DNA from: Candidatus Woesebacteria bacterium
GTDB taxonomy: Bacteria; Patescibacteriota; Microgenomatia; UBA8517
NCBI GenBank assembly: GCA_003484955.1
Contig: DMZH01000001.1
Coordinates: 215,848-279,847 of the forward strand
Reading direction: 5' to 3'
Length of the DNA: 64,000 bases
Shown here one piece after another: positions 1 through 62,756 of the stretch (positions within the stretch are counted from its first letter, which is position 1; every line of letters begins with the position of its first letter). The translations under genes and the position numbers were made by a program. Below the pieces are notes generated by a model. That model was not told where the DNA came from, did not search any database, and saw only the letters and a program-made list of their open reading frames with translations.

Positions 1-306
1 AATTACAGCTTCGGCTTTTTTAAACTTAGCAAGTTTTTCTTCAAGTTCCCTGTGTAAAGTCATCGTACCTGCAATTGTTCTCACGGCTCCCGGCCCGATG
101 CCGTATTTTTCGATAGCCTCAATCGCGGTTTTCTTCATCTCAGGATTATTGGCAAGCCCGAGGTAGTTATTTGAGCAGAAATTTAGGAGTTTTTTACCCT
201 CAATTTGGATTTCGGGCCCGATTGCACTTTCTATTGTCAGGATGTTGTTGTAGAGGTTTTGATCCTTGAGATCTTGGACTTGTTTTTGAATCCAATCTGT
301 GGCCAT
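1..306 (-). CDS. 5'-partial gene (N-terminal ~100 aa in window) of a glycine C-acetyltransferase / 8-amino-7-oxononanoate synthase family (class II aminotransferase, Kbl/BioF-like)
   Basis: Reverse-strand translation from the ATG at 306-304 gives [59 protein letters not shown]...[11 protein letters not shown], matching the conserved N-terminus of Kbl/BioF ([12 protein letters not shown]). It is not in the ORF track because there is no stop in the window. Confidence 0.7.
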
Positions 307-392: not shown

Positions 393-645
393 TCCCCTGT
401 AGCTCAACGGTAGAGCGAGATCCTGTCGAAAATGGCAGCTCTTGATAGTAATTTCAAGATGAAAATCAGGCTAATTCGGGGAACACCTTTTTAAGGCCAA
501 TCCCGAGCTAAACCACGAAAGTGTAAATGTGTAGAGACTATATACCTGACACCCATTTTGGGTGATGAGATAGTCCAATCCTTTTGGTAACAGAAGGGCT
601 ATTGTAAGATCGAGGTTGGAGGTTCGAATCCTCCCGGGGGAGCCA
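393..645 (+). tRNA. tRNA-Asn (anticodon GUU) interrupted by a group I intron between anticodon positions 35 and 36; CCA is encoded
   Basis: 5' exon 393-426: acceptor tcccctg, ta, D-arm gctc-aacggta-gagc, anticodon stem agatc, loop c-t-g-t. 3' exon 605-645: t-a-a, gatcg, variable aggtt, T-arm ggagg-ttcgaat-cctcc, acceptor cggggga, discriminator g, cca. The cloverleaf forms only if 427-604 is removed. Confidence 0.7.
427..604 (+). ncRNA. Group I self-splicing intron (about 178 nt) inside tRNA-Asn
   Basis: U at the end of the 5' exon can pair with G of an internal guide sequence (exon ctgt with gcag at 435-438). There is a P7-like pairing agacta (535-540) with tagtc (571-575), and a terminal G at 604. 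The intron is inserted in the anticodon loop, as in known bacterial tRNA group I introns. Confidence 0.6.
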
Positions 646-8178: not shown

Positions 8179-9083
8179 CACCTTACGTCTCCACCACAAT
8201 GTTGACAGTTGCTGATGAGTTGTCCAAAAGGTCTTATATTTGATCTTCCGCATTTGGGGCAGGTAAAACTAAGAGAACCATATTTATCCTCAAGTCCGGT
8301 TAAGTTCAAAGTTAAAGACTGGCTTTCAAGAGACGAAACAGATGATGATCCGCTGCAACTGACGGCAAATTTACCGACAAGCCCCTTTTCCTGCATTTCA
8401 TCAGCAATGGACTTGGCACTAGCTCCCGAATGAATCAGATCGACAAAATGGTGAATCAATTCATGGCTTGGGAGAGGGATATTATTTGCTTTAGTGCCTA
8501 TTAACTCTAAAAGATTCCCTAAATGAAAATCCCCATCAACTATGAAAAGTTTATTTCTTAATACTTCAGGGTCTTTAATTCCGGCAAAAACAGGGTTTAA
8601 CTTTGTTGCAACTTCCAAAGTGTGGTCTTTGGCTGTGTCAAAAAGCACGGTCACATTAAAAGTGGTTTTTTCTCCCAAAGGGGTTTCTTCTATTTGGTAC
8701 ATGGTGATTTTGTTGCATGGGTAGACAGAGTCGTATGACGGACTGATCCAGAGGGCTGTGCCCGACGGATTTTCCGATACCCAGGATGTTAACGTATTAA
8801 GAAGTTCTGCATCTTTTTGGCCAAGATAGGAGGACGTGTTGATTTCAATCCGCGTACTGGTTTGAAAATCAAGTAACTCTCCATTTTTATATCTGAATTT
8901 ATATTCGTCAGGCTTTCTGTGTGTTTCGTTAAATGTACTTATTATCTCTTCCCTTAAACGGTCTGGTTTGGTATATCTCCAAGAGGGGATAAACTTTTCG
9001 ATTGTTTTTGTTGGAGACTCTATGTGTGACATATTCCTGCTCGGGACTAAAAGATTGGGCTCTGGATGTAACAGTAGCGGCAC
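8175..9083 (-). CDS. Hypothetical protein with an HExxH motif and a C-terminal CxxC...CxxC zinc ribbon
   Basis: 302 aa; SHELIHHFVDLIHSG (HExxH) and C-terminal CPKCGRSNIRPFGQLISNCQHCGG. The true start may be the internal Met (MSHIESP). Confidence 0.55.
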   Translation of the reverse strand: MPLLLHPEPNLLVPSRNMSHIESPTKTIEKFIPSWRYTKPDRLREEIISTFNETHRKPDEYKFRYKNGELLDFQTSTRIEINTSSYLGQKDAELLNTLTSWVSENPSGTALWISPSYDSVYPCNKITMYQIEETPLGEKTTFNVTVLFDTAKDHTLEVATKLNPVFAGIKDPEVLRNKLFIVDGDFHLGNLLELIGTKANNIPLPSHELIHHFVDLIHSGASAKSIADEMQEKGLVGKFAVSCSGSSSVSSLESQSLTLNLTGLEDKYGSLSFTCPKCGRSNIRPFGQLISNCQHCGGDVRC

Positions 9084-9183
9084 TTCTACGGAATTGCACC
9101 GTAATTCACCAATTGGTTTAATGTACTTTTAACACGCCTTTCGGTCAAGTGGTATATTTATATTAGTAAGGGGGTGATGGTGC

Positions 9184-31762: not shown

Positions 31763-32299
31763 ATGGCTATCTATACAAAAACGGGTGATAAAGGGGAAAC
31801 GGGACTTTTTTCTTCTGATAGGTCAAAAAAAATCAGGATAAGTAAAGCTTCTTTGAGGGTTGAGGCAATTGGATCGGTAGATGAGGCAAACACTTTTTTG
31901 GGATTGGCAGCATCTTTTCTAAAAAACAAGGAAATTAATCCCAAGATAATTGAAATTCAGAAACACCTTTTTGAGGTTGGGGCTATATTGGCAGGTGTAA
32001 AAATTGATATGGATAAAGATCTACCCCAGGAAATGGAAAAAGAGATTGATGAAATGGATAAACGACTACCCAAATTAACCCACTTTATTCTTCCAGGAGG
32101 TGGGCACGGGGGAAGCCTTCTTTTTATGGCAAGAACATTTATCAGGCGGGCCGAGAGAAGAGTAGTTTCCCTTTCCAAGAAAGAAAAAGTTAACACAAAT
32201 CTAATGATTTATCTTAATAGACTTTCTGACTACGTCTATACACTTGCGAGGTACTCAAACTTCAAAGAAGGGATAAAGGAAAAGGCTTGGAGAGGGTAG
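31763..32299 (+). CDS. ATP:cob(I)alamin adenosyltransferase, PduO-type
   Basis: 178 aa; MAIYTKTGDKGETGLFSSDRSKKIRISKASLRVEAIGSVDEANTFLGLA matches the PduO/MMAB N-terminal signature. Confidence 0.75.
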   Translation: MAIYTKTGDKGETGLFSSDRSKKIRISKASLRVEAIGSVDEANTFLGLAASFLKNKEINPKIIEIQKHLFEVGAILAGVKIDMDKDLPQEMEKEIDEMDKRLPKLTHFILPGGGHGGSLLFMARTFIRRAERRVVSLSKKEKVNTNLMIYLNRLSDYVYTLARYSNFKEGIKEKAWRG

Positions 32300-32324
32300 C
32301 TAACTGTTATACAATGGTTGATAT

Positions 32325-32678
32325 ATGGCTGCCACACCTGAGGTCCTAAAATCAAGTCAACCCGAAGTTCAGGAGATAAATAAAGAAGCCGAATTTATAG
32401 TTCCTGAAACATTACGGCAAAGCACGGGTATCCAAGTCGTCCAAAAAAACTTTAAATCGCAAGTTAAAGACGATCATGGACAGCCTCTAATCCAGACTCC
32501 GCCGGCTCAGGTAATTGAAGTAAACCCTCCGGCAGACCTGGAAACACTTACCGACTGGTCAAAAGGTTCCGTAGATTCTTCTCAAACATGGTTGGGAATG
32601 TTTTGGAAGAGAATTTTTCTGAAAGCCTTATATTTTGGTTGGAAAATAATTGGAAAGGAAAAAGCAAATGCCGCTTGA
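32325..32678 (+). CDS. Hypothetical protein
   Basis: 117 aa; no recognisable motif. Overlaps the start of the downstream ATPase gene by about 29 nt. Confidence 0.4.
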   Translation: MAATPEVLKSSQPEVQEINKEAEFIVPETLRQSTGIQVVQKNFKSQVKDDHGQPLIQTPPAQVIEVNPPADLETLTDWSKGSVDSSQTWLGMFWKRIFLKALYFGWKIIGKEKANAA

Positions 32679-35001
32679 TTCAATAAACTACGCAAATATT
32701 CTTTTTATAGCGGTTTTAACCGTGTTTCTTATTTTTCTTTTGGTTGCTTTCGGGTATTCTGTTTTTATTTATTTTAAAAATAGGGATCGTGAGAAGAAAT
32801 CTATAGAGTCGGTGCTTTTACAAGTTGCGGTTCCAAGGCACAACGAAACGAAAATAGACGTTATGGAGCAGCTTATTTCCGGCCTTTATTCAATAAAAAA
32901 AGGAGGTTGGAAACAAAAATTTTCGGTGCAGCCGGCGATTTCTTTTGAGATAGTTGCCAGGCAGGAAGATATCCGTTTTTATGTTTGGGTTCCCCAGAAG
33001 CTTAAGGATTTGGTTGAAAAACAAATAAACGGAGCATATTCGGATGCCGAGGTGATTGAGGTTGATGAATACAATGTTTTTGACAGTAAAGGTAAAGTTG
33101 CCTACAAAACATTTCAATTAGGAAAAAATAATTTTTATCCCCTTAAAACTTTTAAAGATTTAGCAACGGATCCTATGCTTGGAATCACCTCGGCTCTCGC
33201 AAAAATGGGACCGGGGGATGCTGCTGTGATTCAAATTATTATTTCTCCGGCAGAGACTGATTGGCAAAAAGAGGGAAGTCATTTTGTGAGCGACACCAAA
33301 AAACAGGAAAGTGATGCCGAAAAAGCAAAGTTTTCTACTTCAGCTAAAACCCTGGAGGCGGTTGAATCAAAAATCAGCAAGCCGGGGTTTGAGACATCCA
33401 TAAGAATTATTGCCGTGTCGGAAGATGAAGAGACCGCCAAAGGAACCGTGACAAACATTGCCGGATCTTTTGCTCAATTTGCGGGAGAGCTGAACAGTCT
33501 TAAAGGAAGAAAGATCTACAGAAAATCTTCATTTATGGAGGACTTTTTGTACAGATACCAGCCTATGTTTAATATTTTTGGCAATCATGTTTCCATTCTT
33601 AATTCCGAAGAATTGGCTACTATTTTTCATTTTCCAAATAAACAAATTACAACCCCACATATCCACTGGCTTAATGCTAAAACAGCCCCTGCTCCTTCCC
33701 AGATTCCCACCGAAGGGCTTCATTTGGGAGTTAGTGCCTACAGGGGAATCAAAAGACCGGTTTACATCAGCAATGAGGATAGGATGCGCCACATTTATAT
33801 AATCGGAAAAACTGGCACAGGGAAGTCCGAACTTCTTAAAGACCTTGTTCTGCAGGATATAAGAGAGGGAAAAGGAGTTTGCTTTATGGATCCACATGGA
33901 GATGCAGTTGAAGATATTCTGAAACTTATTCCGCCGGAGAGAGCTGAGGACGTTATTTATTTTAATCCGAGTGACACGGAACGCCCTCTGGGAATGAACC
34001 TCCTTGAAGCAAGAACCGAGGATGAAAAACATTTTGCAGCTACTTCGGTGATTAATCTCATGTATAAGCTTTTTGATCCTTATAAAACCGGAATTGTAGG
34101 GCCAAGGTTTGAACATGGTGTCAGAAATGCCATGCTTACGGTAATGGCAGAACCGGGAAATACTTTTGTTGAGCTAATGCGTGCAATGACCGATTCCAGA
34201 TATGTTCAGGAACTTTTGCCGAAGGTTACCGACCCCATCATTAGGAGATATTGGACTGATCAGATTGCCCAGACTTCAGACTTTCATAAATCTGAAGTTT
34301 TGGATTACACAGTCTCAAAATTTGGCCGCTTTGTCACAAATAAGCTTATAAGAAATATCATTGGACAATCTCAAAGCTCTTTTGACATGAGGAAAGTTAT
34401 GGACGAGGGTAAAATTCTCCTAATTAATCTTGCCAAAGGTCCACTGGGGGAGGAAAACAGCAACTTTTTAGGTCTTCTTCTTGTCCCGAGAATTTTGATG
34501 GCGGCAATGAGTAGGGCCAATGTTCCGATGGCTCAAAGACGCGATTTTTACTTTTATGTTGATGAATTCCAGAATTTTGCTACGCCAGATTTTGCAGTGA
34601 TTTTATCCGAAGCCAGAAAATATCGGCTTGGACTTTGTGTTGCCAACCAATTTATCGGACAGGTTGAAGAGGAAGTCAAAAACGCGGTTTTTGGCAATGT
34701 CGGAACACTTGTCGCCTTCAGGGTGGGGGTATCCGATGCCAATTATCTCCAGCATGAATTTACACCGACCTTTGGGGAAGACGACCTTCTTAATGTTGAG
34801 CGCTACCATGCCTACTGTAAGACGATCGTCAATAACGAACCCGTCCCTCCTTTTTCGATGGATATGAGCAAGGACATGAATAAACAGAAAGCGGCAGAAA
34901 GCCCGCGGGTTGCCGAAATAATAAAAGAAATGAGCAGACTTAAATACGGACGTGACGAAAAATTGGTTGAAGCGGAGATTCAAAGAAGATCCAATCTTTA
35001 G
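32650..35001 (+). CDS. Membrane-anchored TraD/VirD4/TraG-like P-loop ATPase (type IV coupling protein-like)
   Basis: 783 aa; N-terminal TM helix, about 330-aa N-domain, Walker A IIGKTGTGKSEL, Walker B-like FYFYVDEFQNF, and C-terminal conserved LVAFRVG. The architecture is typical of T4SS DNA-binding/coupling ATPases. Confidence 0.65.
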   Translation: MERKKQMPLDSINYANILFIAVLTVFLIFLLVAFGYSVFIYFKNRDREKKSIESVLLQVAVPRHNETKIDVMEQLISGLYSIKKGGWKQKFSVQPAISFEIVARQEDIRFYVWVPQKLKDLVEKQINGAYSDAEVIEVDEYNVFDSKGKVAYKTFQLGKNNFYPLKTFKDLATDPMLGITSALAKMGPGDAAVIQIIISPAETDWQKEGSHFVSDTKKQESDAEKAKFSTSAKTLEAVESKISKPGFETSIRIIAVSEDEETAKGTVTNIAGSFAQFAGELNSLKGRKIYRKSSFMEDFLYRYQPMFNIFGNHVSILNSEELATIFHFPNKQITTPHIHWLNAKTAPAPSQIPTEGLHLGVSAYRGIKRPVYISNEDRMRHIYIIGKTGTGKSELLKDLVLQDIREGKGVCFMDPHGDAVEDILKLIPPERAEDVIYFNPSDTERPLGMNLLEARTEDEKHFAATSVINLMYKLFDPYKTGIVGPRFEHGVRNAMLTVMAEPGNTFVELMRAMTDSRYVQELLPKVTDPIIRRYWTDQIAQTSDFHKSEVLDYTVSKFGRFVTNKLIRNIIGQSQSSFDMRKVMDEGKILLINLAKGPLGEENSNFLGLLLVPRILMAAMSRANVPMAQRRDFYFYVDEFQNFATPDFAVILSEARKYRLGLCVANQFIGQVEEEVKNAVFGNVGTLVAFRVGVSDANYLQHEFTPTFGEDDLLNVERYHAYCKTIVNNEPVPPFSMDMSKDMNKQKAAESPRVAEIIKEMSRLKYGRDEKLVEAEIQRRSNL

Positions 35002-35089
35002 GAAATGGATATAGAGATACAAAGTAGTTGGTGCCGGTTGTTTTTTCTAACTTTATATCTTAATATCAATTCACTTAATATCTAAAAAT

Positions 35090-35932
35090 ATGAACATCGG
35101 TATTATCGGCAACGGATATGTGGGCGGTGCTACAGGGACGGGTTTTGCCACAAACCCTGATAATAAAATTTTTTGGTACGATAAATATAAAAAAAGCCCC
35201 GACACACTAGACGAAGTAATCGAAAAGTCAGACTTCATTTTTATTTGTGTTCCTACACCTATTTTTTCCGATTATTCAGGAATGGATATGAGTATAGTTG
35301 AGGAAGTTGTAGGGGAGGTTGCAGAAAAAATCAAAGATTCGGAAAAGATTGTCATCATTAAATCAACTTCACTTCCCGGAACTACCAAGAAAATGATAAA
35401 AAAATACCCTCATGTAAATTTTGTCATGAACCCTGAATTTCTAACTCAGAAAAACGCAAATGCTGATTTTCTTAAACCATTTAGGACTGTGATTGGCTGT
35501 GAGGCGCCTGATGTGGGGGATAGAGTCAAGAAACTCTACGAAACAATTTTACCCGGAGATCAAAAATACATAATTACGGATACAACCAGTGCAGAGGTAA
35601 TTAAGTATATGAGCAACTTAATGCTTGCCAGTAAAGTTCTTCTGGCAAATGAATTTTATGAACTTTCTAAAAAAGTCGGGGCAAACTATTTGGATGTACA
35701 AAAAGGAGTTGAGTCGGATCCAAGGATAGGAACCCATCTAGGTGTTCCCGGGCCAGATGGCGATGTTGGATTTGGAGGGGCGTGTTTCCCTAAAGATATG
35801 GTGGGAATATTGGGTTTGGCAAAAAAACTTAATGTTGATATGAATACCCTCAAAACTATCTGGGAGGAAAATCTCAGGATAAGAAAACATCGCGATTGGG
35901 AAGAAATGCCTCAGGCTTTCAAGAAAAAATAA
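35090..35932 (+). CDS. UDP-glucose/GDP-mannose dehydrogenase family protein (short, lacks the C-terminal UDP-binding domain)
   Basis: 280 aa; NAD-binding MNIGIIGNGYVGGATG and catalytic GGACFPKD. Ends before the usual C-terminal domain. Confidence 0.6.
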   Translation: MNIGIIGNGYVGGATGTGFATNPDNKIFWYDKYKKSPDTLDEVIEKSDFIFICVPTPIFSDYSGMDMSIVEEVVGEVAEKIKDSEKIVIIKSTSLPGTTKKMIKKYPHVNFVMNPEFLTQKNANADFLKPFRTVIGCEAPDVGDRVKKLYETILPGDQKYIITDTTSAEVIKYMSNLMLASKVLLANEFYELSKKVGANYLDVQKGVESDPRIGTHLGVPGPDGDVGFGGACFPKDMVGILGLAKKLNVDMNTLKTIWEENLRIRKHRDWEEMPQAFKKK

Positions 35933-35945
35933 CTGTCAAAATCTA

Positions 35946-36016
35946 GTGGGCTCGCATGGAATCGAACCATGGCATCGACTTTATAAGAGTCGTGTCCTAC
36001 CATTAAACGACAAGCC
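35946..36016 (-). tRNA. tRNA-Ile with a genomically encoded UAU anticodon
   Basis: Reverse complement gggcttg-tc-gttt-aatggta-ggac-a-cgact-cttataa-agtcg-atgc-catgg-ttcgatt-ccatg-cgagccc-a folds as a cloverleaf. The anticodon loop ct-TAT-aa gives UAU. No encoded CCA. Confidence 0.75.
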
Positions 36017-36062
36017 CGTTACTATCAAAGTCTAGTCGTATTATAACAGAAGAGAGGCTGTT

Positions 36063-36926
36063 TTATAGCTCTATGAGGACTTGTTTTTTACCAGGATCCG
36101 TAATTTGGGCAAGTTCAAGATAGCGCTCGGTTGTCGAAAGGCGCTTGTGTCCTGAAACTTGTGAGAGAAGAACAATATCAACTCCGGCTTTAAGGTTTTC
36201 AATAATAAATGTGGTCCTCAAGTCATTGACAGAATAGTTTGGAAGTTCTGCTTTTTGAATATATCTGGCAATTGACGCCCTGATATTTCTGACTGCCAGA
36301 GGCTTTCCGTTTTTACTGATAAACACATACGGCGAATCCGCCTTCGGACGGATTGTCAGGTAGGCATTTAACACATCGGATGCGGGTTTGTTGAGAGGAA
36401 TAGTTCTTTCGGGTTGGGTTGCATAGGCCTCAATTTTTAAGGAATCTCCCCCGACATTTTCAGTCTTTAAGCTGGCAACTTCGGAAATTCTAAGTCCGCT
36501 TTGGAGAATTAGTTCAGTGATAGCGGCGATCCTAATATCATTTCTGACGACATCCCTTAGGGCTCTATACTCAAGAGGGGAGAGAAATTTGGGAAGCGCA
36601 CTTTCAATTTTTGGATGTGCTACCGAAGCGGAAACATCGGATGTAATGATATTTTCCGAAATCATCCATCTAAAGAAGGTTTTGACGGCGTTAAGCTTGC
36701 GGCTAACCGATTTCGGGGTGTATTTATCGGCCAAAAGAGTATCACGAAAAGAGTCGAGATCATCTGGTCTTACCTGTTCGGGTAAAACTTTTTCGCGTCT
36801 GACCAAAAACTCCACTAGCTGAGTTAAGTCGCTTCGGTAGGCCAAAATGGTTGCCGGTGAACGCCTTTTCTCAGTTAACGAATTTATAAATTTTGGGAGC
36901 AGGCTTTTGATAGGTTCTTGTGCCAT
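36063..36926 (-). CDS. Tyrosine site-specific recombinase (XerC/XerD or phage-integrase family)
   Basis: 287 aa; N-terminal SAM-like core-binding domain (ILAYRSDLTQLVEFL), catalytic R...GLRISEV...HKRLSTTERYLEL (R-H-R-Y). Confidence 0.8.
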   Translation of the reverse strand: MAQEPIKSLLPKFINSLTEKRRSPATILAYRSDLTQLVEFLVRREKVLPEQVRPDDLDSFRDTLLADKYTPKSVSRKLNAVKTFFRWMISENIITSDVSASVAHPKIESALPKFLSPLEYRALRDVVRNDIRIAAITELILQSGLRISEVASLKTENVGGDSLKIEAYATQPERTIPLNKPASDVLNAYLTIRPKADSPYVFISKNGKPLAVRNIRASIARYIQKAELPNYSVNDLRTTFIIENLKAGVDIVLLSQVSGHKRLSTTERYLELAQITDPGKKQVLIEL

Positions 36927-37050
36927 AATATATTCGTAGCAGTTTGCTTTGCAATTATGACTCAGATGCTATGGGCACCTTTCGTCTATTTGCTTTGCAA
37001 TTATAGTGCAAATTTTAAAATAGTCAATGCATTACAGGATATAATTAATT

Positions 37051-37440
37051 ATGAAAAACAAAAACCCAGGTCTCCTGGAAGTCAAGTTTAAAAGTGTTTT
37101 GGGATACGCAATATGGTTTTTAGCGGTACTTCTTTCGATTTCCACCGTCAGGAATATAGGTAGAGTAGTAAGCATCAGAAAGCAGGTGGAGGCGGAGAGG
37201 CAGAAAGTCGAAAAAATGCAGGCGGATAACGCAAAACTTCAAACTCAAATCGCTGAAGCGCAAGGACAGGATTTTATCGAAAAGCAAATTCGGAACAAGC
37301 TTGGGCTCACCAAAGAAGGGGAGGCTATGGTTGTGCTTCCGGACGAATCAATAGTCAGAAGTCTTGCCCCTTCTCTAACTTCCGAAGAAGAAACGCTTCC
37401 TGATCCAAACTGGAAGAAATGGGAAAAACTGTTTTTCTAG
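37051..37440 (+). CDS. Septum formation initiator family protein (FtsB/DivIC-like)
   Basis: 129 aa; TM helix then the coiled coil VEAERQKVEKMQADNAKLQTQIAEAQGQDFIEKQIRNKLGLTKEGE, typical of FtsB/DivIC. Confidence 0.6.
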   Translation: MKNKNPGLLEVKFKSVLGYAIWFLAVLLSISTVRNIGRVVSIRKQVEAERQKVEKMQADNAKLQTQIAEAQGQDFIEKQIRNKLGLTKEGEAMVVLPDESIVRSLAPSLTSEEETLPDPNWKKWEKLFF

Positions 37441-37447
37441 CTTCTTG

Positions 37448-37727
37448 TTGCGGGGCTGGGAGTTGAACCCAGCCTGTGAGATTATGCTTTTCGCGTTTCT
37501 CCGGTTTCCCGGAGTGTCGGACTATGTCTTCCCCGAAACAAGTTCGGAGTCTGGCGTATAGTCTCTACGGACTCGCCACATTCAGTTATGAATGTGGATT
37601 GCCTCGGCGTTACCCTGTGACTCGAATAATCTTGTCATTTAGGTTTCACCGATACAGTCAGATTTCATTCTAATCTCTTAGAAATGGCCCAATTTGAGCC
37701 TCACGTGCAGCCGTACACTACCCCGCA
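37448..37727 (-). tRNA. tRNA with anticodon CAU (Met / Ile2-type) interrupted by a group I intron between positions 33 and 34
   Basis: Minus-strand 5' exon 37727-37697: tgcgggg-ta-gtgt-acggct-gcac-g-tgagg-ct. 3' exon 37486-37448: cataa-tctca-cagg-ctggg-ttcaact-cccag-ccccgca-a. Acceptor, anticodon and T stems pair perfectly only after removing 37487-37696. Confidence 0.65.
37487..37696 (-). ncRNA. Group I self-splicing intron (about 210 nt) inside the CAU tRNA
   Basis: 5' exon ends in U that can pair with G of an IGS (exon ggct with intron ggcc). There is a P7-like agactata (plus-strand 37559-37566) with atagtc (plus-strand 37520-37525), and a terminal G before the 3' exon. It has the same architecture as the tRNA-Asn intron. 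Confidence 0.55.
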
Positions 37728-37804
37728 TATAAACGAACAGCTTGAATTATATCATGTTTTCAAATCTTAACAATATTAAACCTAACTATATAGTATAATA
37801 AATT

Positions 37805-38488
37805 ATGTCTAAGTCGGTTCAGAAGGTTGAAGCTAGAGAGTTAAGATTAAAAGGAAAAAGCATTAAAAAAATTGCCAAAAAACTTGGTGTTTCGGTTGGC
37901 TCTGTAAGTATTTGGTGTCGGGATATCGAATTAAGTCTTGATCAGAAAAAGATATTGGATATTAATGCTAGAAATCCTTATTACGGCGGAAGGGGGGTTT
38001 ATTTAAGAAACTTAAAAAAGAGAACCGACCTGAAGGCCAAAAAACTTGAAAAGGCCGGAGTTAAAGAAATAGGGAAACTGGGCAAAAGAGAACTGTTTCT
38101 AACCGGCGCAGCCCTTTATTGGGCGGAGGGTTTTAAAAAAGACAGCCAGGTAGGTTTGGCCAGTCTTGATTCCAAAATGATTAAATTTTTTATTAAATGG
38201 CTTAAAGTTTGTTTTGGATATAAAGATCAGGACCTAATGTTTAGACTGACGGTAAACATCAGTCATAAATACAGAATTTCCGAGATTGAAAAACACTGGT
38301 CGGAGGAACTAAAAATTCCCCTCAGCCAATTCCAAAAGCCTTTTTACCAAAATTTTATATGGAAAAAGGTTTACGACAATCCAGAAGATTACTTTGGTGT
38401 TTTAAGAGTTAAGGTGCGAAAAAGTAAAGATTTTCTGAGAAAAATTTATGGATTTATCGATGGTTTGAGATTACAAGCTCAAGTGTAG
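37805..38488 (+). CDS. HTH-domain protein with a LAGLIDADG-like (second-motif type, LYWAEG) endonuclease-like domain
   Basis: 227 aa; N-terminal HTH (IKKIAKKLGVSVGSVSIWCRD). Central FLTGAALYWAEGFKKDSQV...FIKWLKVCFGYKD resembles the GLYVAEGDK motif and following strand of LAGLIDADG homing endonucleases. Confidence 0.45.
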   Translation: MSKSVQKVEARELRLKGKSIKKIAKKLGVSVGSVSIWCRDIELSLDQKKILDINARNPYYGGRGVYLRNLKKRTDLKAKKLEKAGVKEIGKLGKRELFLTGAALYWAEGFKKDSQVGLASLDSKMIKFFIKWLKVCFGYKDQDLMFRLTVNISHKYRISEIEKHWSEELKIPLSQFQKPFYQNFIWKKVYDNPEDYFGVLRVKVRKSKDFLRKIYGFIDGLRLQAQV

Positions 38489-38504
38489 TAAAATAGCCAT
38501 GTTT

Positions 38505-38577
38505 GCCGGCGTAGCTCAGTGGTAGTAGCGGACGTTTCATAAGCGTCAGGTCACAGGTTCAATCCCTGTCGCCGGCA
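38505..38577 (+). tRNA. tRNA-Met (anticodon CAU; elongator-type features)
   Basis: gccggcg-ta-gctc...-g-gacgt-ttCATaa-gcgtc-aggtc-acagg-ttcaatc-cctgt-cgccggc-a. G1-C72 paired and no run of three G-C pairs in the anticodon stem, so not a canonical initiator. Confidence 0.8.
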
Positions 38578-38605
38578 CATTTTTGTTTTCTGATACACTA
38601 AACAT

Positions 38606-39592
38606 ATGAAAAAAAGAGTATTTTCCGGTACAAGGGCCACGGGCAGATTGCATTTGGGCAACTATCTTGGGGCAGTAAAGGGATATTTGGAATTACAAAA
38701 TAACCCCGATTATGAGGCCATTTATATGGTTATGGATTTGCATGCCATAACGACCCCCTACGATAAGGCAAAATTGTTCGAAAACACCAGAAATGTAGTT
38801 ATGGATTATCTTGCCTGCGGACTTGATCCTGAAAAGTCCATAATTACAGCACAATCTTTAGTTCCGGAACACACGTTTCTTGCCCACATTCTTTCATCCG
38901 AAATTACTGTTGCCAGAATGCAGCACCTTCCCACATTTAAAGAAAAAGTTAAACAGCACCCCGATCACGTAACCATGGCACTTCTTAATTACCCGGTTTT
39001 GATGGCTTCCGACATACTTCTTTATAAAGCAAGTCTGGTTCCTGTTGGTATTGATCAGGAACCGCATTTGGAGGTTGCCCGCGAAATTGCCAGGAAAATA
39101 AACGAAAAATACGGCACAGATTTCCCCGAGCCAAAACGTTTTGCCACACAAGGAGAATATGTTCCGTCCCTGACAGGGGAGGGGAAAATGAGCAAAAGCG
39201 TTGAGGGAAGTTATATAGGTTTGACGGATAGTTTGGATGAAATTAAAAAGAAACTCTCAGGAGCTCCTACAGATTCAGGGAAAGGTGAGGCTATTCCGGA
39301 AAAGGGAGGAGTCGCCAATCTTTTTAAGCTAGTTGAATTATTTGAAGGTTCTGAAAAAAGAAAAGAATACGAAGAAAAATATCTCGGTGGTGGGGTAAGA
39401 TACGGCGAGTTGAAAACGGAACTTGCAGAGGCTATATTTAAAGAAATTGAGCCTATCCAAAAACAAAGAAAAATCTATGAGAACGATCCGTCTTTGGTTG
39501 AAAGGGTTATTAAGGAAGGAGCTGAAAAAGCAGGGATAATTGCCGGAAAAACAATAGAGGAGATAAAAGATAAAATTGGGCTAATCAAATAA
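38606..39592 (+). CDS. trpS: Tryptophanyl-tRNA synthetase
   Basis: 328 aa class I aaRS; GTRATGRLHLGNYLG (HIGH-type) and KMSKS. Size and motifs fit TrpRS. Confidence 0.85.
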   Translation: MKKRVFSGTRATGRLHLGNYLGAVKGYLELQNNPDYEAIYMVMDLHAITTPYDKAKLFENTRNVVMDYLACGLDPEKSIITAQSLVPEHTFLAHILSSEITVARMQHLPTFKEKVKQHPDHVTMALLNYPVLMASDILLYKASLVPVGIDQEPHLEVAREIARKINEKYGTDFPEPKRFATQGEYVPSLTGEGKMSKSVEGSYIGLTDSLDEIKKKLSGAPTDSGKGEAIPEKGGVANLFKLVELFEGSEKRKEYEEKYLGGGVRYGELKTELAEAIFKEIEPIQKQRKIYENDPSLVERVIKEGAEKAGIIAGKTIEEIKDKIGLIK

Positions 39593-39960
39593 TGGACAAC
39601 ATTTCTTTTGACGATTTTGAAAAGGTTGATATCAGAATCGGCACCGTAGTTTCCGCAGAGGTTCCGGAGTGGAGCCATTGGGTTATGAAGCTAAAGGTTG
39701 ATTTTGGTCCCGAAATTGGAGAAAAGCAGTGTTTTTCGGGAATTATGAAATTCTACAAACCCGAAGAGTTGCTTGGTAAACAGTTTCCGTTTGTTATCAA
39801 CCTGGAGCCTAGAAAAATGGGGCCGGAAAGAGAGGCCAGTGAGGCAATGATGATAATGGCTGCCCCCGGGGACAATCTGCCGGAAGAAGAAATGGAAGAT
39901 GTTGCCCCCGTCCTTTTTCAGCTTCAAAACAAAGTTGCCGACGGGACAAAAGTACGTTAA
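39592..39960 (+). CDS. tRNA-binding domain protein (CsaA/Trbp111/EMAP-like OB fold)
   Basis: 122 aa; FEKVDIRIGTVVSAEVPEWS...LKVDFGPEIGEKQCFSGI...NLEPRKMGP is the Myf/tRNA_bind domain. Confidence 0.7.
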   Translation: MDNISFDDFEKVDIRIGTVVSAEVPEWSHWVMKLKVDFGPEIGEKQCFSGIMKFYKPEELLGKQFPFVINLEPRKMGPEREASEAMMIMAAPGDNLPEEEMEDVAPVLFQLQNKVADGTKVR

Positions 39961-50100: not shown

Positions 50101-51792
50101 ATGCAGTTAAACAAATTCGCAGGCTATCTGGAAAAACTGGAAAAGACTCCTTCCAGGCTTGAAATTACACGGATTTTGTCGAACTTGTTAAAGGAAACCC
50201 CCACTTCTGAAATTGATAAAGTGGTGTTTTTGTCATTGGGAATTTTAGCCCCGAATTATGAAGGAACGATTCTGAACCTGGCGGAAAAGATGATGATAAG
50301 AGTTTTAATGCTGGGTTTCGGAAAAAGTGAGAATGAGGTCAAAGTTTTATACAAAGCAAGCGGGGATTTGGGAAATGTGGCCGAGGAGCTGGGCAAAAGG
50401 CAAGGGGTAAAAGATAAAAGTTTAACTGTAGCGGAAGTGTACGATAAACTTTTGGAAATCGCCGAAGACGGCGGTGGTGGGTCACAGGATCGGAAAATTG
50501 AAAAAATGGCTAAAATCCTGACCGAAATAGATCCGCTCTCTGCCCGCTACATTGCCAGAATTCCTGTTGGCAGGCTTAGGCTTGGGTTTTCCGAAAAAAC
50601 GGTAATTGACGCACTTTCCTCTGAAAGCGGAATTCCGGAAAGAGAAATTGAAAATGCATTCAATATAAGGCCAAATATTGGCTATATTGCACGCTTGGTT
50701 AAAGAAAAAAACATTAAAGATGCCAAGCCCGAAATCGGAGTACCTGTTGTACCAATGCTTGCCCAGAGACTTAACTCAACGGACGCCATGATAAAAAAAA
50801 TGGGAAAGGTTTCTGTCGAGCCAAAATTTGACGGTTTAAGGATATTTATACATTACAGGAAAAAGGATAATCTGGTGAAGATATTCACCCGCAACATGAA
50901 TGCGATTAATCTTGATACCTTTCCGGAGCTGAAAGATGTGGGAAAATACATTAAGGCTTCGGAGGCGATTCTGGACTCTGAAGCTATCGGGGTTGACCCG
51001 AAACGGGCAATGTTTTTGGATTTCCAAAAAACAATTCAAAGAAGGAGAAAGCACGAGATTGAGAAAAACGCTTCTGAGATTCCTCTGCAGTTTCAGGTCT
51101 TTGACATACTTCTTTTTGACGGGAAAAGCCTCATAGGCGTTCCCTACACGGAAAGAAGGGGAATTCTTGAAAAAGTAGCCGTAAACGGGAGTCTTCTACG
51201 GGTTGATGAAAATACGATTACAAATGATCCTGAAGTAATCAAAAATATGCATGAGAAATATCTGAAAATGGGACTTGAGGGGGTAGTTGTCAAAAAAGCC
51301 AACGGGACTTATGTTTCGGGAAGAACCGGCTGGAATTGGGTCAAAATGAAGGAGGTTGAAGGTAAACGGGGAAAACTTTCCGATACGATCGATTGCGTAA
51401 TAATGGGTTATACGTCCGGGAAGGGGAAAAGAACCGGCTTTGGGATGGGCCAGTTTTTGGCTGGGATTAGAGATGGCGACACGTTTAAAAGTGTTACAAA
51501 GGTCGGAACGGGACTATCTGATGAACAGTTTAGGGAATTAAAAGCTCGTTTAACCAAAATTCAGGTGAAAGAAAAACCAAAGGAATATATCGTAAATAAA
51601 GACCTGTATCCCGATTTTTGGGTCACCCCCTCGGTTGTAATTGAACTTGCGGCAGACGAAATAACGGTAAGCCCAAAACATACGGCCGGCCTTGCCCTCA
51701 GGTTTCCACGGCTAATTCGATTCCGTGACGATAGAAGTGTCATAGATGTAACAACTGTAAACGAACTTCACGATCTTTTGAAGCTACAGTAA
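50101..51792 (+). CDS. ATP-dependent DNA ligase (Lig I/archaeal-like)
   Basis: 563 aa; motif I EPKFDGLRIFIH (KxDG), motif VI LRFPRLIRFRDDRS, and an N-terminal DNA-binding domain. Confidence 0.8.
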   Translation: MQLNKFAGYLEKLEKTPSRLEITRILSNLLKETPTSEIDKVVFLSLGILAPNYEGTILNLAEKMMIRVLMLGFGKSENEVKVLYKASGDLGNVAEELGKRQGVKDKSLTVAEVYDKLLEIAEDGGGGSQDRKIEKMAKILTEIDPLSARYIARIPVGRLRLGFSEKTVIDALSSESGIPEREIENAFNIRPNIGYIARLVKEKNIKDAKPEIGVPVVPMLAQRLNSTDAMIKKMGKVSVEPKFDGLRIFIHYRKKDNLVKIFTRNMNAINLDTFPELKDVGKYIKASEAILDSEAIGVDPKRAMFLDFQKTIQRRRKHEIEKNASEIPLQFQVFDILLFDGKSLIGVPYTERRGILEKVAVNGSLLRVDENTITNDPEVIKNMHEKYLKMGLEGVVVKKANGTYVSGRTGWNWVKMKEVEGKRGKLSDTIDCVIMGYTSGKGKRTGFGMGQFLAGIRDGDTFKSVTKVGTGLSDEQFRELKARLTKIQVKEKPKEYIVNKDLYPDFWVTPSVVIELAADEITVSPKHTAGLALRFPRLIRFRDDRSVIDVTTVNELHDLLKLQ

Positions 51793-62618: not shown

Positions 62619-62629
62619 ATGTTGATATG

Positions 62630-62701
62630 TGAGCCCTCTGGGACTCGAACCCAGAACCGCTTCCTTAAAAGGGAATTGCTCTACCATTGAGCTAAGGGCC
62701 C
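62630..62701 (-). tRNA. tRNA-Lys (anticodon UUU)
   Basis: Reverse complement gggccct-ta-gctc-aatggta-gagc-a-attcc-ctTTTaa-ggaag-cggtt-ctggg-ttcgagt-cccag-agggctc-a. Confidence 0.8.
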
Positions 62702-62734: not shown

Positions 62735-62756
62735 CTTACCATTGAGCTAAGGGCCC
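62735..62756 (-). repeat. Direct repeat: duplicated 5' fragment (acceptor 5' strand plus D-arm) of tRNA-Lys
   Basis: cttaccattgagctaagggccc repeats 62680-62701 (ctctaccattgagctaagggccc) with one indel, 33 bp upstream of the intact gene on the gene strand. No complete cloverleaf, so it reads as a pseudo-tRNA remnant. Confidence 0.5.

Follow-up and report, generated by a model that had tools for sequence, protein, structure and literature searches.

A probable initiator tRNA gene of Microgenomatia interrupted between U33 and C34 by a predicted group I intron

The window, that is, the whole 64,000-nt stretch of DNA analysed here, is part of a small bacterial chromosome and has a G+C content of about 40%. 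Two halves of a tRNA(CAU) gene are found on its minus strand, at 37727-37697 and 37486-37448; the neighboring genes encode ribonucleotide reductase, a DivIC-like protein, a synthetase of the TrpRS/TyrRS family, FtsH, a stand-alone 5'-3' exonuclease, and glycosyltransferases. The locus comprises the following features:

37746..37773, minus strand: promoter-like site, TTGTTA, a 16-nt spacer and a TG-extended TATAAT (consensus match only)
37728..37738, minus strand: leader motif GTTCGTTTATA, abutting the 5' end of tRNA(CAU); the same motif at 381-391 abuts tRNA-Asn
37697..37727, minus strand: 5' exon, covering positions 1-33 of the tRNA (acceptor strand UGCGGGG, D arm, 5' strand of the anticodon stem, then C32 and U33)
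37487..37696, minus strand: predicted group I intron, 210 nt (RF00028 match, 22 same-site homologues, covarying structure)
37448..37486, minus strand: 3' exon, covering positions 34-73 of the tRNA (CAU anticodon, 3' strand of the anticodon stem, T arm, acceptor strand CCCCGCA and A73)

The acceptor strand TGCGGGG (37727-37721) pairs with CCCCGCA (37455-37449), A73 corresponds to 37448, and the T arm CTGGG-TTCAACT-CCCAG occupies 37472-37456 of the minus strand, so that the long-distance pairing between the acceptor/T-arm module and tgcgggg, proposed in a preliminary description of this DNA, is borne out by the coordinates. Excision of 37696-37487 (exactly 210 nt) leaves a 70-nt cloverleaf with the anticodon loop CU-CAU-AA, again as that description had it, and ARAGORN identifies the joined exons as tRNA-Met(cat). 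The ligated exons are identical in 69 of 69 positions to nine uninterrupted tRNA genes from other species, which places the locus far beyond chance; one of these nine genes scores 49.3 bits on RF00005, with every pair standard. The 5' exon has the same sequence as the 5' part of the uninterrupted orthologues, and the predicted ligation site, ...GUGAGGCU|CAUAAUCUCA..., which had been put forward as the splice junction to look for, matches these orthologues as well. No CCA is encoded after the 3' exon (37448..37486). The fold of the precursor has a z-score of -5.4 against shuffled sequence.

The promoter-like site shows 10 of 12 hexamer matches, with TG preceding the -10 element, and its end lies 18 nt upstream of the 5' end of the tRNA. 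Between the two is the leader GTTCGTTTAYA, which, with TGATATAAT before it, adjoins each of the two intron-bearing tRNA genes of the window at its 5' end (381-391 on the plus strand and 37728-37738 on the minus strand) and is found at none of the window's other five tRNAs. Looser variants of this leader (GTTCTTTGACA and similar) occur upstream of orthologues both with and without an intron. The motif GTTCKTTKAYA is not enriched across the window (9 occurrences vs 12 expected, with one mismatch allowed). A third exact copy, at 51756-51766, was considered as a sign of a further hidden tRNA and rejected: it is located inside a 563-aa ORF.

Judging by its sequence, the insert is a group I intron. 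The Rfam search that had been suggested as a check of this assignment identifies RF00028 at 37706-37498 of the minus strand with a score of 58.2 bits (E-value 3.6e-12), along the full model (1-253); the score exceeds the gathering threshold of 50 by only 8 bits. The 210-nt intron contains no ORF for a homing endonuclease, and no same-site intron in the set is long enough to accommodate one. A blastn search of phage genomes started with the intron yields no match, and metagenome contigs contain no match to a 28-mer specific for the intron of the window.

Because CA begins both the intron and the 3' exon, comparison with intronless genes alone allows three equivalent registers. In the register adopted here, the insertion falls between U33 and C34; where the intron of an orthologue begins with A or T, the site is unambiguous and the same as in the window. 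Excision at U33/C34 reproduces the uninterrupted orthologues exactly, so that the insertion site is the orthologous one. The terminal G precedes CAUAA in all 21 same-site introns that were resolved by a regular expression (20 loci and the window), and the respective column at the intron end (G218) is invariant in the alignment of 23 sequences.

The elements P1 to P9 were assigned from the Rfam alignment and the sequence, and base pairs were counted on a MAFFT alignment of 23 introns. The assignment is as follows:

37686..37700, minus strand: P1, exon GGCU (37700-37697) and intron C37696 paired with the guide GGGCC (37690-37686)
37668..37683, minus strand: P2 hairpin, 6 bp, GAGA loop; the P2 columns covary
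37604..37662, minus strand: P3 5' strand (37662-37657), P4 (37652-37647 with 37609-37604), P5 and its extension (37643-37613)
37569..37603, minus strand: P6 and a 9-bp P6a hairpin (fold, Rfam alignment, covariation count)
37519..37565, minus strand: catalytic core, P7 5' strand G-(A)-GACUA (37565-37559), P3 3' strand (37555-37550), P8 (37549-37531), J8/7 and P7 3' strand UAGUCC (37524-37519)
37499..37514, minus strand: P9 hairpin, 6 bp, GAAA loop; 4 of 6 pairs covary
37487..37487, minus strand: omega-G, the intron-terminal guanosine at the 3' splice site

The wobble pair of P1 at the 5' splice site is U37697·G37689, flanked by G-C, G-C and C-G; the U.G is kept in 22 of the 23 aligned sequences despite a one-column shift in the MAFFT alignment, and all 23 introns have the guide GGGCC or GGGCU. 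Blocks that are invariant across the 23 introns are located in P3, P4, P6, P7 and J8/7. P7, with its bulged A, is the same in all 23 and accordingly shows no compensatory changes, which are found in P3, P4, P5, P8 and P9; in P8, all seven pairs are changed on both sides. The fraction of paired cells reaches 95.7% in P3 and 99.3% in P4, and the P3 of the window has a single A x C mismatch. The loops of P2 and P9 are of the GNRA type. P10 pairing is weak, if there is any. Over the structure as a whole, 88.3% of the cells are standard pairs, compared to 78.0% after shuffling and 33.4-52.5% when the partner is slid by 1-3 columns; pairs changed on both sides number 22 of 47 (16.3 shuffled, 7-12 slid), and the covariation score is 0.304 (0.136 shuffled, at most 0.12 slid). 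The covariation across the 23 introns thus speaks for a conserved core from P3 to P9 that includes the P3/P7 pseudoknot.

A scan of species-representative genomes with a pattern for the 5' exon detects at least 119 related loci, almost all from Microgenomatia; the genome of the window is not among the matches listed. Many of the listed loci are labelled Shapirobacteria, Woesebacteria, Levyibacteria or Microgenomates, and about half carry TPA labels that look like placeholders (e.g., "uncultured Gammaproteobacteria"). Among the matches listed, 22 of 119 loci carry a homologous intron of 184-266 nt directly after U33, two of them recovered through a looser pattern. The resolved orthologous genes number 110 (109 loci and the window), 89 of which are uninterrupted, so that about one in five of the Microgenomatia species sampled appear to carry the intron in this initiator-like tRNA. 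The closest locus among the matches listed (L086, Ca. Microgenomates bacterium SPRUCE 40) is syntenic with the window over 32276-39800, with a DNA identity of 71-77%. At the same site, L086 has an intron with 94% identity to the one in the window, and this excess over the surrounding DNA points to selection acting on the intron RNA. The plus-strand ORF 37476-37673 (65 aa, GTG start), previously regarded as spurious, appears to be just that: in L086, no open stretch on the antisense strand exceeds 35 aa.

The preliminary description had left the identity of the tRNA open among initiator, elongator and Ile2. The interrupted gene is probably the initiator, by elimination and by its own features. 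In the classical bacterial initiator, 1:72 is a C1 x A72 mismatch and not a strong pair. The window has U1-A72, a weak Watson-Crick pair, as had been read from the letters, and the 110 orthologues have U-A in 92 cases, C x A in 17 and A-U in one, never G-C or C-G. The D stem of initiators, as established in work on E. coli, contains A11:U24; here the pair is U11:A24, which is of the elongator type. The acceptor stem UGCGGGG/CCCCGCA contains G2:C71 and C3:G70, and its pairs 2-7 with 66-71 (GCGGGG/CCCCGC) are presumably the same as in E. coli tRNA-fMet; when the spliced tRNA is compared to E. coli genomes by blastn, no match emerges at the size of that database. PMC5389676 names the two pairs G2:C71 and C3:G70 as formyltransferase determinants. 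The absence of the canonical three consecutive G:C pairs from the anticodon stem, also recorded earlier, holds: pairs 29:41, 30:40 and 31:39 are A-U, G-C and G.U. This au/GC/gu combination is found in 107 of the 110 orthologues, and the other three have au/GC/GC or GC/GC/gu; all these combinations are natural initiator variants of mycoplasmas and alpha-proteobacteria (PMC5389676). Three consecutive purine:pyrimidine pairs in the anticodon stem are present in all 110 orthologues, compared to 4 of 84 members of the neighboring CAU family. As a family, the initiator-like tRNAs of Microgenomatia have a short, unusual D arm (GUGUACGGCUGCAC), mostly U1-A72, and no canonical three G-C pairs.

The neighboring family is represented in the window by a second CAU tRNA (38505-38578, plus strand), which occurs near the orthologue of the interrupted gene in 68 loci among the matches listed; in its members, 1:72 is G1-C72 or G1.U72, and the D arm is of the canonical elongator type. 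In addition, tRNA-Ile(UAU) is encoded 1.4 kb away (35946-36017, minus strand) and accompanies the gene in 54 loci among the matches listed. Because the other CAU family is elongator-like, tRNA-Ile(UAU) is present, and the interrupted gene has initiator features of its own, the latter is best interpreted as the initiator. No second copy of it is found in the 64-kb window. It is unlikely that the interrupted gene encodes an elongator tRNA-Met instead, a reading that would leave that of the intron unchanged. Both ARAGORN and a published survey (PMC13011429) label this tRNA Met(CAU), and the U:A pair at 11:24, the Watson-Crick pair at 1:72 and the lack of the canonical three G-C pairs agree with an elongator, but the elongator features of the neighboring CAU family, 80 of whose 84 members lack the purine:pyrimidine triplet, the C1 x A72 mismatch in 17 orthologues of the interrupted gene, and the documented status of au/GC/gu as an initiator variant (PMC5389676) all argue for the initiator.

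Across Microgenomatia, tRNA-Ile(UAU), the initiator-like tRNA(CAU) and the second tRNA(CAU) form a conserved cluster, which suggests that AUA is read by the UAU tRNA and that a lysidine-containing tRNA-Ile2 is not needed. It is very improbable, then, that the interrupted gene is a tRNA-Ile2 that would decode AUA after modification of C34 to lysidine: group I introns do occur in tRNA-Ile2(CAU) of Acidovorax and Burkholderia, as well as Azoarcus, but tRNA-Ile(UAU) is close by, in the window and in the 54 loci among the matches listed, and the acceptor stem is of the fMet type. Complete genomes of Microgenomatia have only two CAU tRNAs, along with two Ile tRNAs, according to a published supplement (PMC13011429), and one of the two CAU tRNAs of GCA_013426185.1 is the intron-bearing gene; two CAU genes leave little place for tRNA-Ile2.

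That the tRNA gene is non-functional and decaying, its intron dead and the functional copy elsewhere in the genome, is similarly hard to reconcile with the data. The 64 kb covered and the single P3 mismatch of the window would fit this scenario, but the exons are the same as functional-looking genes of nine species, the intron is better conserved than the flanking coding DNA, its core positions are invariant and its helices covary, a promoter-like site is present, and the window has no second copy. The chance that the locus encodes a tmRNA, or tRNA-Leu(CAA) with an intron at 36/37, is negligible: the T arm does resemble that of tmRNA and ARAGORN with -i reports Leu(caa) i(35,210), but no tmRNA is detected by ARAGORN (including -m) or by Rfam at E<=1, in agreement with its earlier rejection, 3:70 is C-G, and with the Leu(CAA) boundaries the last base would be A in the 5' exon and U in the intron, and the product would match no uninterrupted orthologue, the same miscall being documented for GCA_013426185.1 (PMC13011429). 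A permissive Rfam scan of 37350-37850 likewise adds only a chance-level match to an antisense RNA and no tmRNA. In its default mode, ARAGORN reports five tRNAs in the window, none of them at 37448-37727, and no tmRNA; in intron mode, it shifts the intron of tRNA(CAU) three bases onward, which results in Leu(caa). Thus, standard tRNA finders either miss or mislabel the interrupted gene, so that the genome would seem to lack an initiator and would score as less complete.

The other intron-bearing tRNA gene, whose presence the preliminary description had rightly noted, encodes tRNA-Asn:

393-645, plus strand: gene for tRNA-Asn(GUU), interrupted at 35/36 by a group I intron of 178 nt (427-604); CCA encoded

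RF00028 matches the intron of this gene at 415-597 with 70.7 bits. ARAGORN in intron mode miscalls the gene as Thr(tgt), a type of error described for such tRNA-Asn genes (PMC13011429), and the gene belongs to the published 35/36 class of Patescibacteria (PMC13011429). A family of introns that has spread to at least two tRNA genes had been proposed from the shared P1 U.G and the P7 elements AGACUA/UAGUC. The elements are indeed shared, but they are part of the general RF00028 consensus, and the two introns are about 70% identical, which is the background level for global pairwise identity, a measure that discriminates poorly (background about 0.63-0.70, even for an IC3 intron) and of which only clear extremes were used. 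Compared to Asp 35/36 introns from other genomes, the identity of the Asn intron rises to 79-82%. With their mutual identity at background and each closer to introns at its own site elsewhere, the CAU and Asn introns appear to be related only as members of one intron class; their comparison shows no sign of a recent spread within the genome. The 18-nt P7/P3' core of the 33/34 introns (CCGTAGAGACTAYACGCC) is found in at least 119 metagenome stretches, many of them outside tRNA genes; three of eight stretches tested (L121, L123, L134) place it within 23S rRNA genes. Some of these 23S rRNA group I introns (those of the same three stretches) appear to hold internal ORF-like sequence.

The arrangement itself has already been reported, and the window is a further member of a published lineage. 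In an analysis of complete Patescibacteria genomes, Nakagawa et al. 2026 (mSystems, PMC13011429) describe Asn and Asp introns at 35/36 as well as two Met(CAU) introns at 33/34 in Microgenomatia (GCA_001029755.1 and GCA_013426185.1). Over its first 24 nt, the 5' exon of the window is identical to both of these genes. The window and published 33/34 introns are alike in their site, GGGCC-type guide, core blocks and size class, and neither has a homing endonuclease. The intron of the window aligns over its full length with that of L031 (CP011214.1, which is GCA_001029755.1) and with 21 others; identity to the L031 intron is about 72%, and the P5 extension and the 3' tail differ. The survey (PMC13011429) does not name the host tRNA an initiator; the present analysis argues that it most likely is one.

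Like the Asn and Asp 35/36 introns of the same phylum, the CAU intron of the window is small, lacks endonuclease genes and has a similar P7/J8-7 core, but differs from them in site, guide and host tRNA. The intron in tRNA-Ile(CAU) of Azoarcus is a small group I intron of subgroup IC3, located in the anticodon loop and inserted after the anticodon; it shares with the intron of the window the small size and the CAU anticodon loop, and the two differ in the side of insertion and in tRNA identity. Position 33/34 of tRNA-fMet is the classical cyanobacterial intron site (1994; Paquin et al. 1997, in the form in which these are cited in PMC8450103 and PMC13011429). The cyanobacterial intron resembles that of the window in its location after U33, its expected chemistry and, most likely, its initiator host. 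Cyanobacterial and Bacteroidota fMet introns are classed as IC3 in the accessible entries of Table S5 of PMC13011429, whereas none of the tRNA introns of Patescibacteria is of class IC and nearly all are IA (PMC13011429). Given this difference in class, and the background level of identity between the intron of the window and a cyanobacterial example, the sequences suggest that the 33/34 site was occupied independently in Patescibacteria and cyanobacteria.

Altogether, the locus can be described with good confidence as a tRNA(CAU) gene, most likely that of the initiator, from a member of Microgenomatia (Patescibacteria), split between U33 and C34 by a 210-nt group I ribozyme. The intron would be expected to splice itself in vivo through the standard group I mechanism. 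Transcription would start from the putative extended -10 promoter, and the intron would fold into P1-P9, with the guide GGGCC and the exon GGCU forming the U.G wobble. Free guanosine bound in P7 would then attack after U37697; subsequently, the terminal G37487 would occupy that pocket in turn, and the 3'-OH released at U33 would attack before C34. Joining of the exons would produce the 70-nt tRNA, to be followed by trimming and CCA addition. Self-splicing in vitro has been demonstrated only for the related 35/36 introns of Patescibacteria (Nakagawa et al. 2026, PMC13011429). This may be the sole initiator gene of the genome, of which 64 kb are covered here; splicing would in that case be essential. 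All translation initiation in a genome-reduced symbiont would then depend on a ribozyme and on guanosine, and splicing could conceivably act as a valve responding to the guanine-nucleotide pool or growth state, a speculation to which we assign a low probability. The unusual character of the initiator (U1-A72, au/GC/gu) may also entail differences in its handling by the formyltransferase and IF3. What is new here is modest: the argument that the host tRNA is the initiator, the prevalence of about one-fifth, and the uniformity of au/GC/gu and U1-A72 in the initiator family. These observations add a case to the pattern of small, endonuclease-free group I introns that are kept in essential tRNA genes of Patescibacteria, and raise no question beyond those of the 2026 survey (PMC13011429).

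Several features of the window, and one metagenome contig, deserve a brief mention. The tRNA-Ile(UAU) gene is flanked by an ORF for a TraG/VirD4-like coupling protein (32650-35001, plus strand) and one for a tyrosine recombinase (36063-36926, minus strand); the arrangement is syntenic in L086 and hence is not a recent insertion. At 35090-35932 (plus strand), an ORF of 280 aa resembles UDP-glucose/GDP-mannose dehydrogenases, with the NAD-binding profile matching from position 70, which may reflect an N-terminal truncation or a miscalled start. A match to the AdoCbl-II riboswitch at 9048-9125 (minus strand) is barely above the threshold (36.8 vs 36.5 bits). On a metagenome contig of unassigned taxonomy (L132), a group II intron D1-D4 match (160-244, plus strand; 44.5 bits, gathering threshold 35) is located about 800 nt upstream of a match to the group I core (1023-1040); the sole reason to mention it is that group II introns are reported to be absent from Patescibacteria. 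Finally, 20 nt from the 5' end of tRNA-Lys (GGGCCCTTAGCTCAATGGTA) recur at 62737-62756 (minus strand), 35 nt upstream of the tRNA-Lys gene (62629-62701), and may represent a truncated duplicate or a recombination scar.
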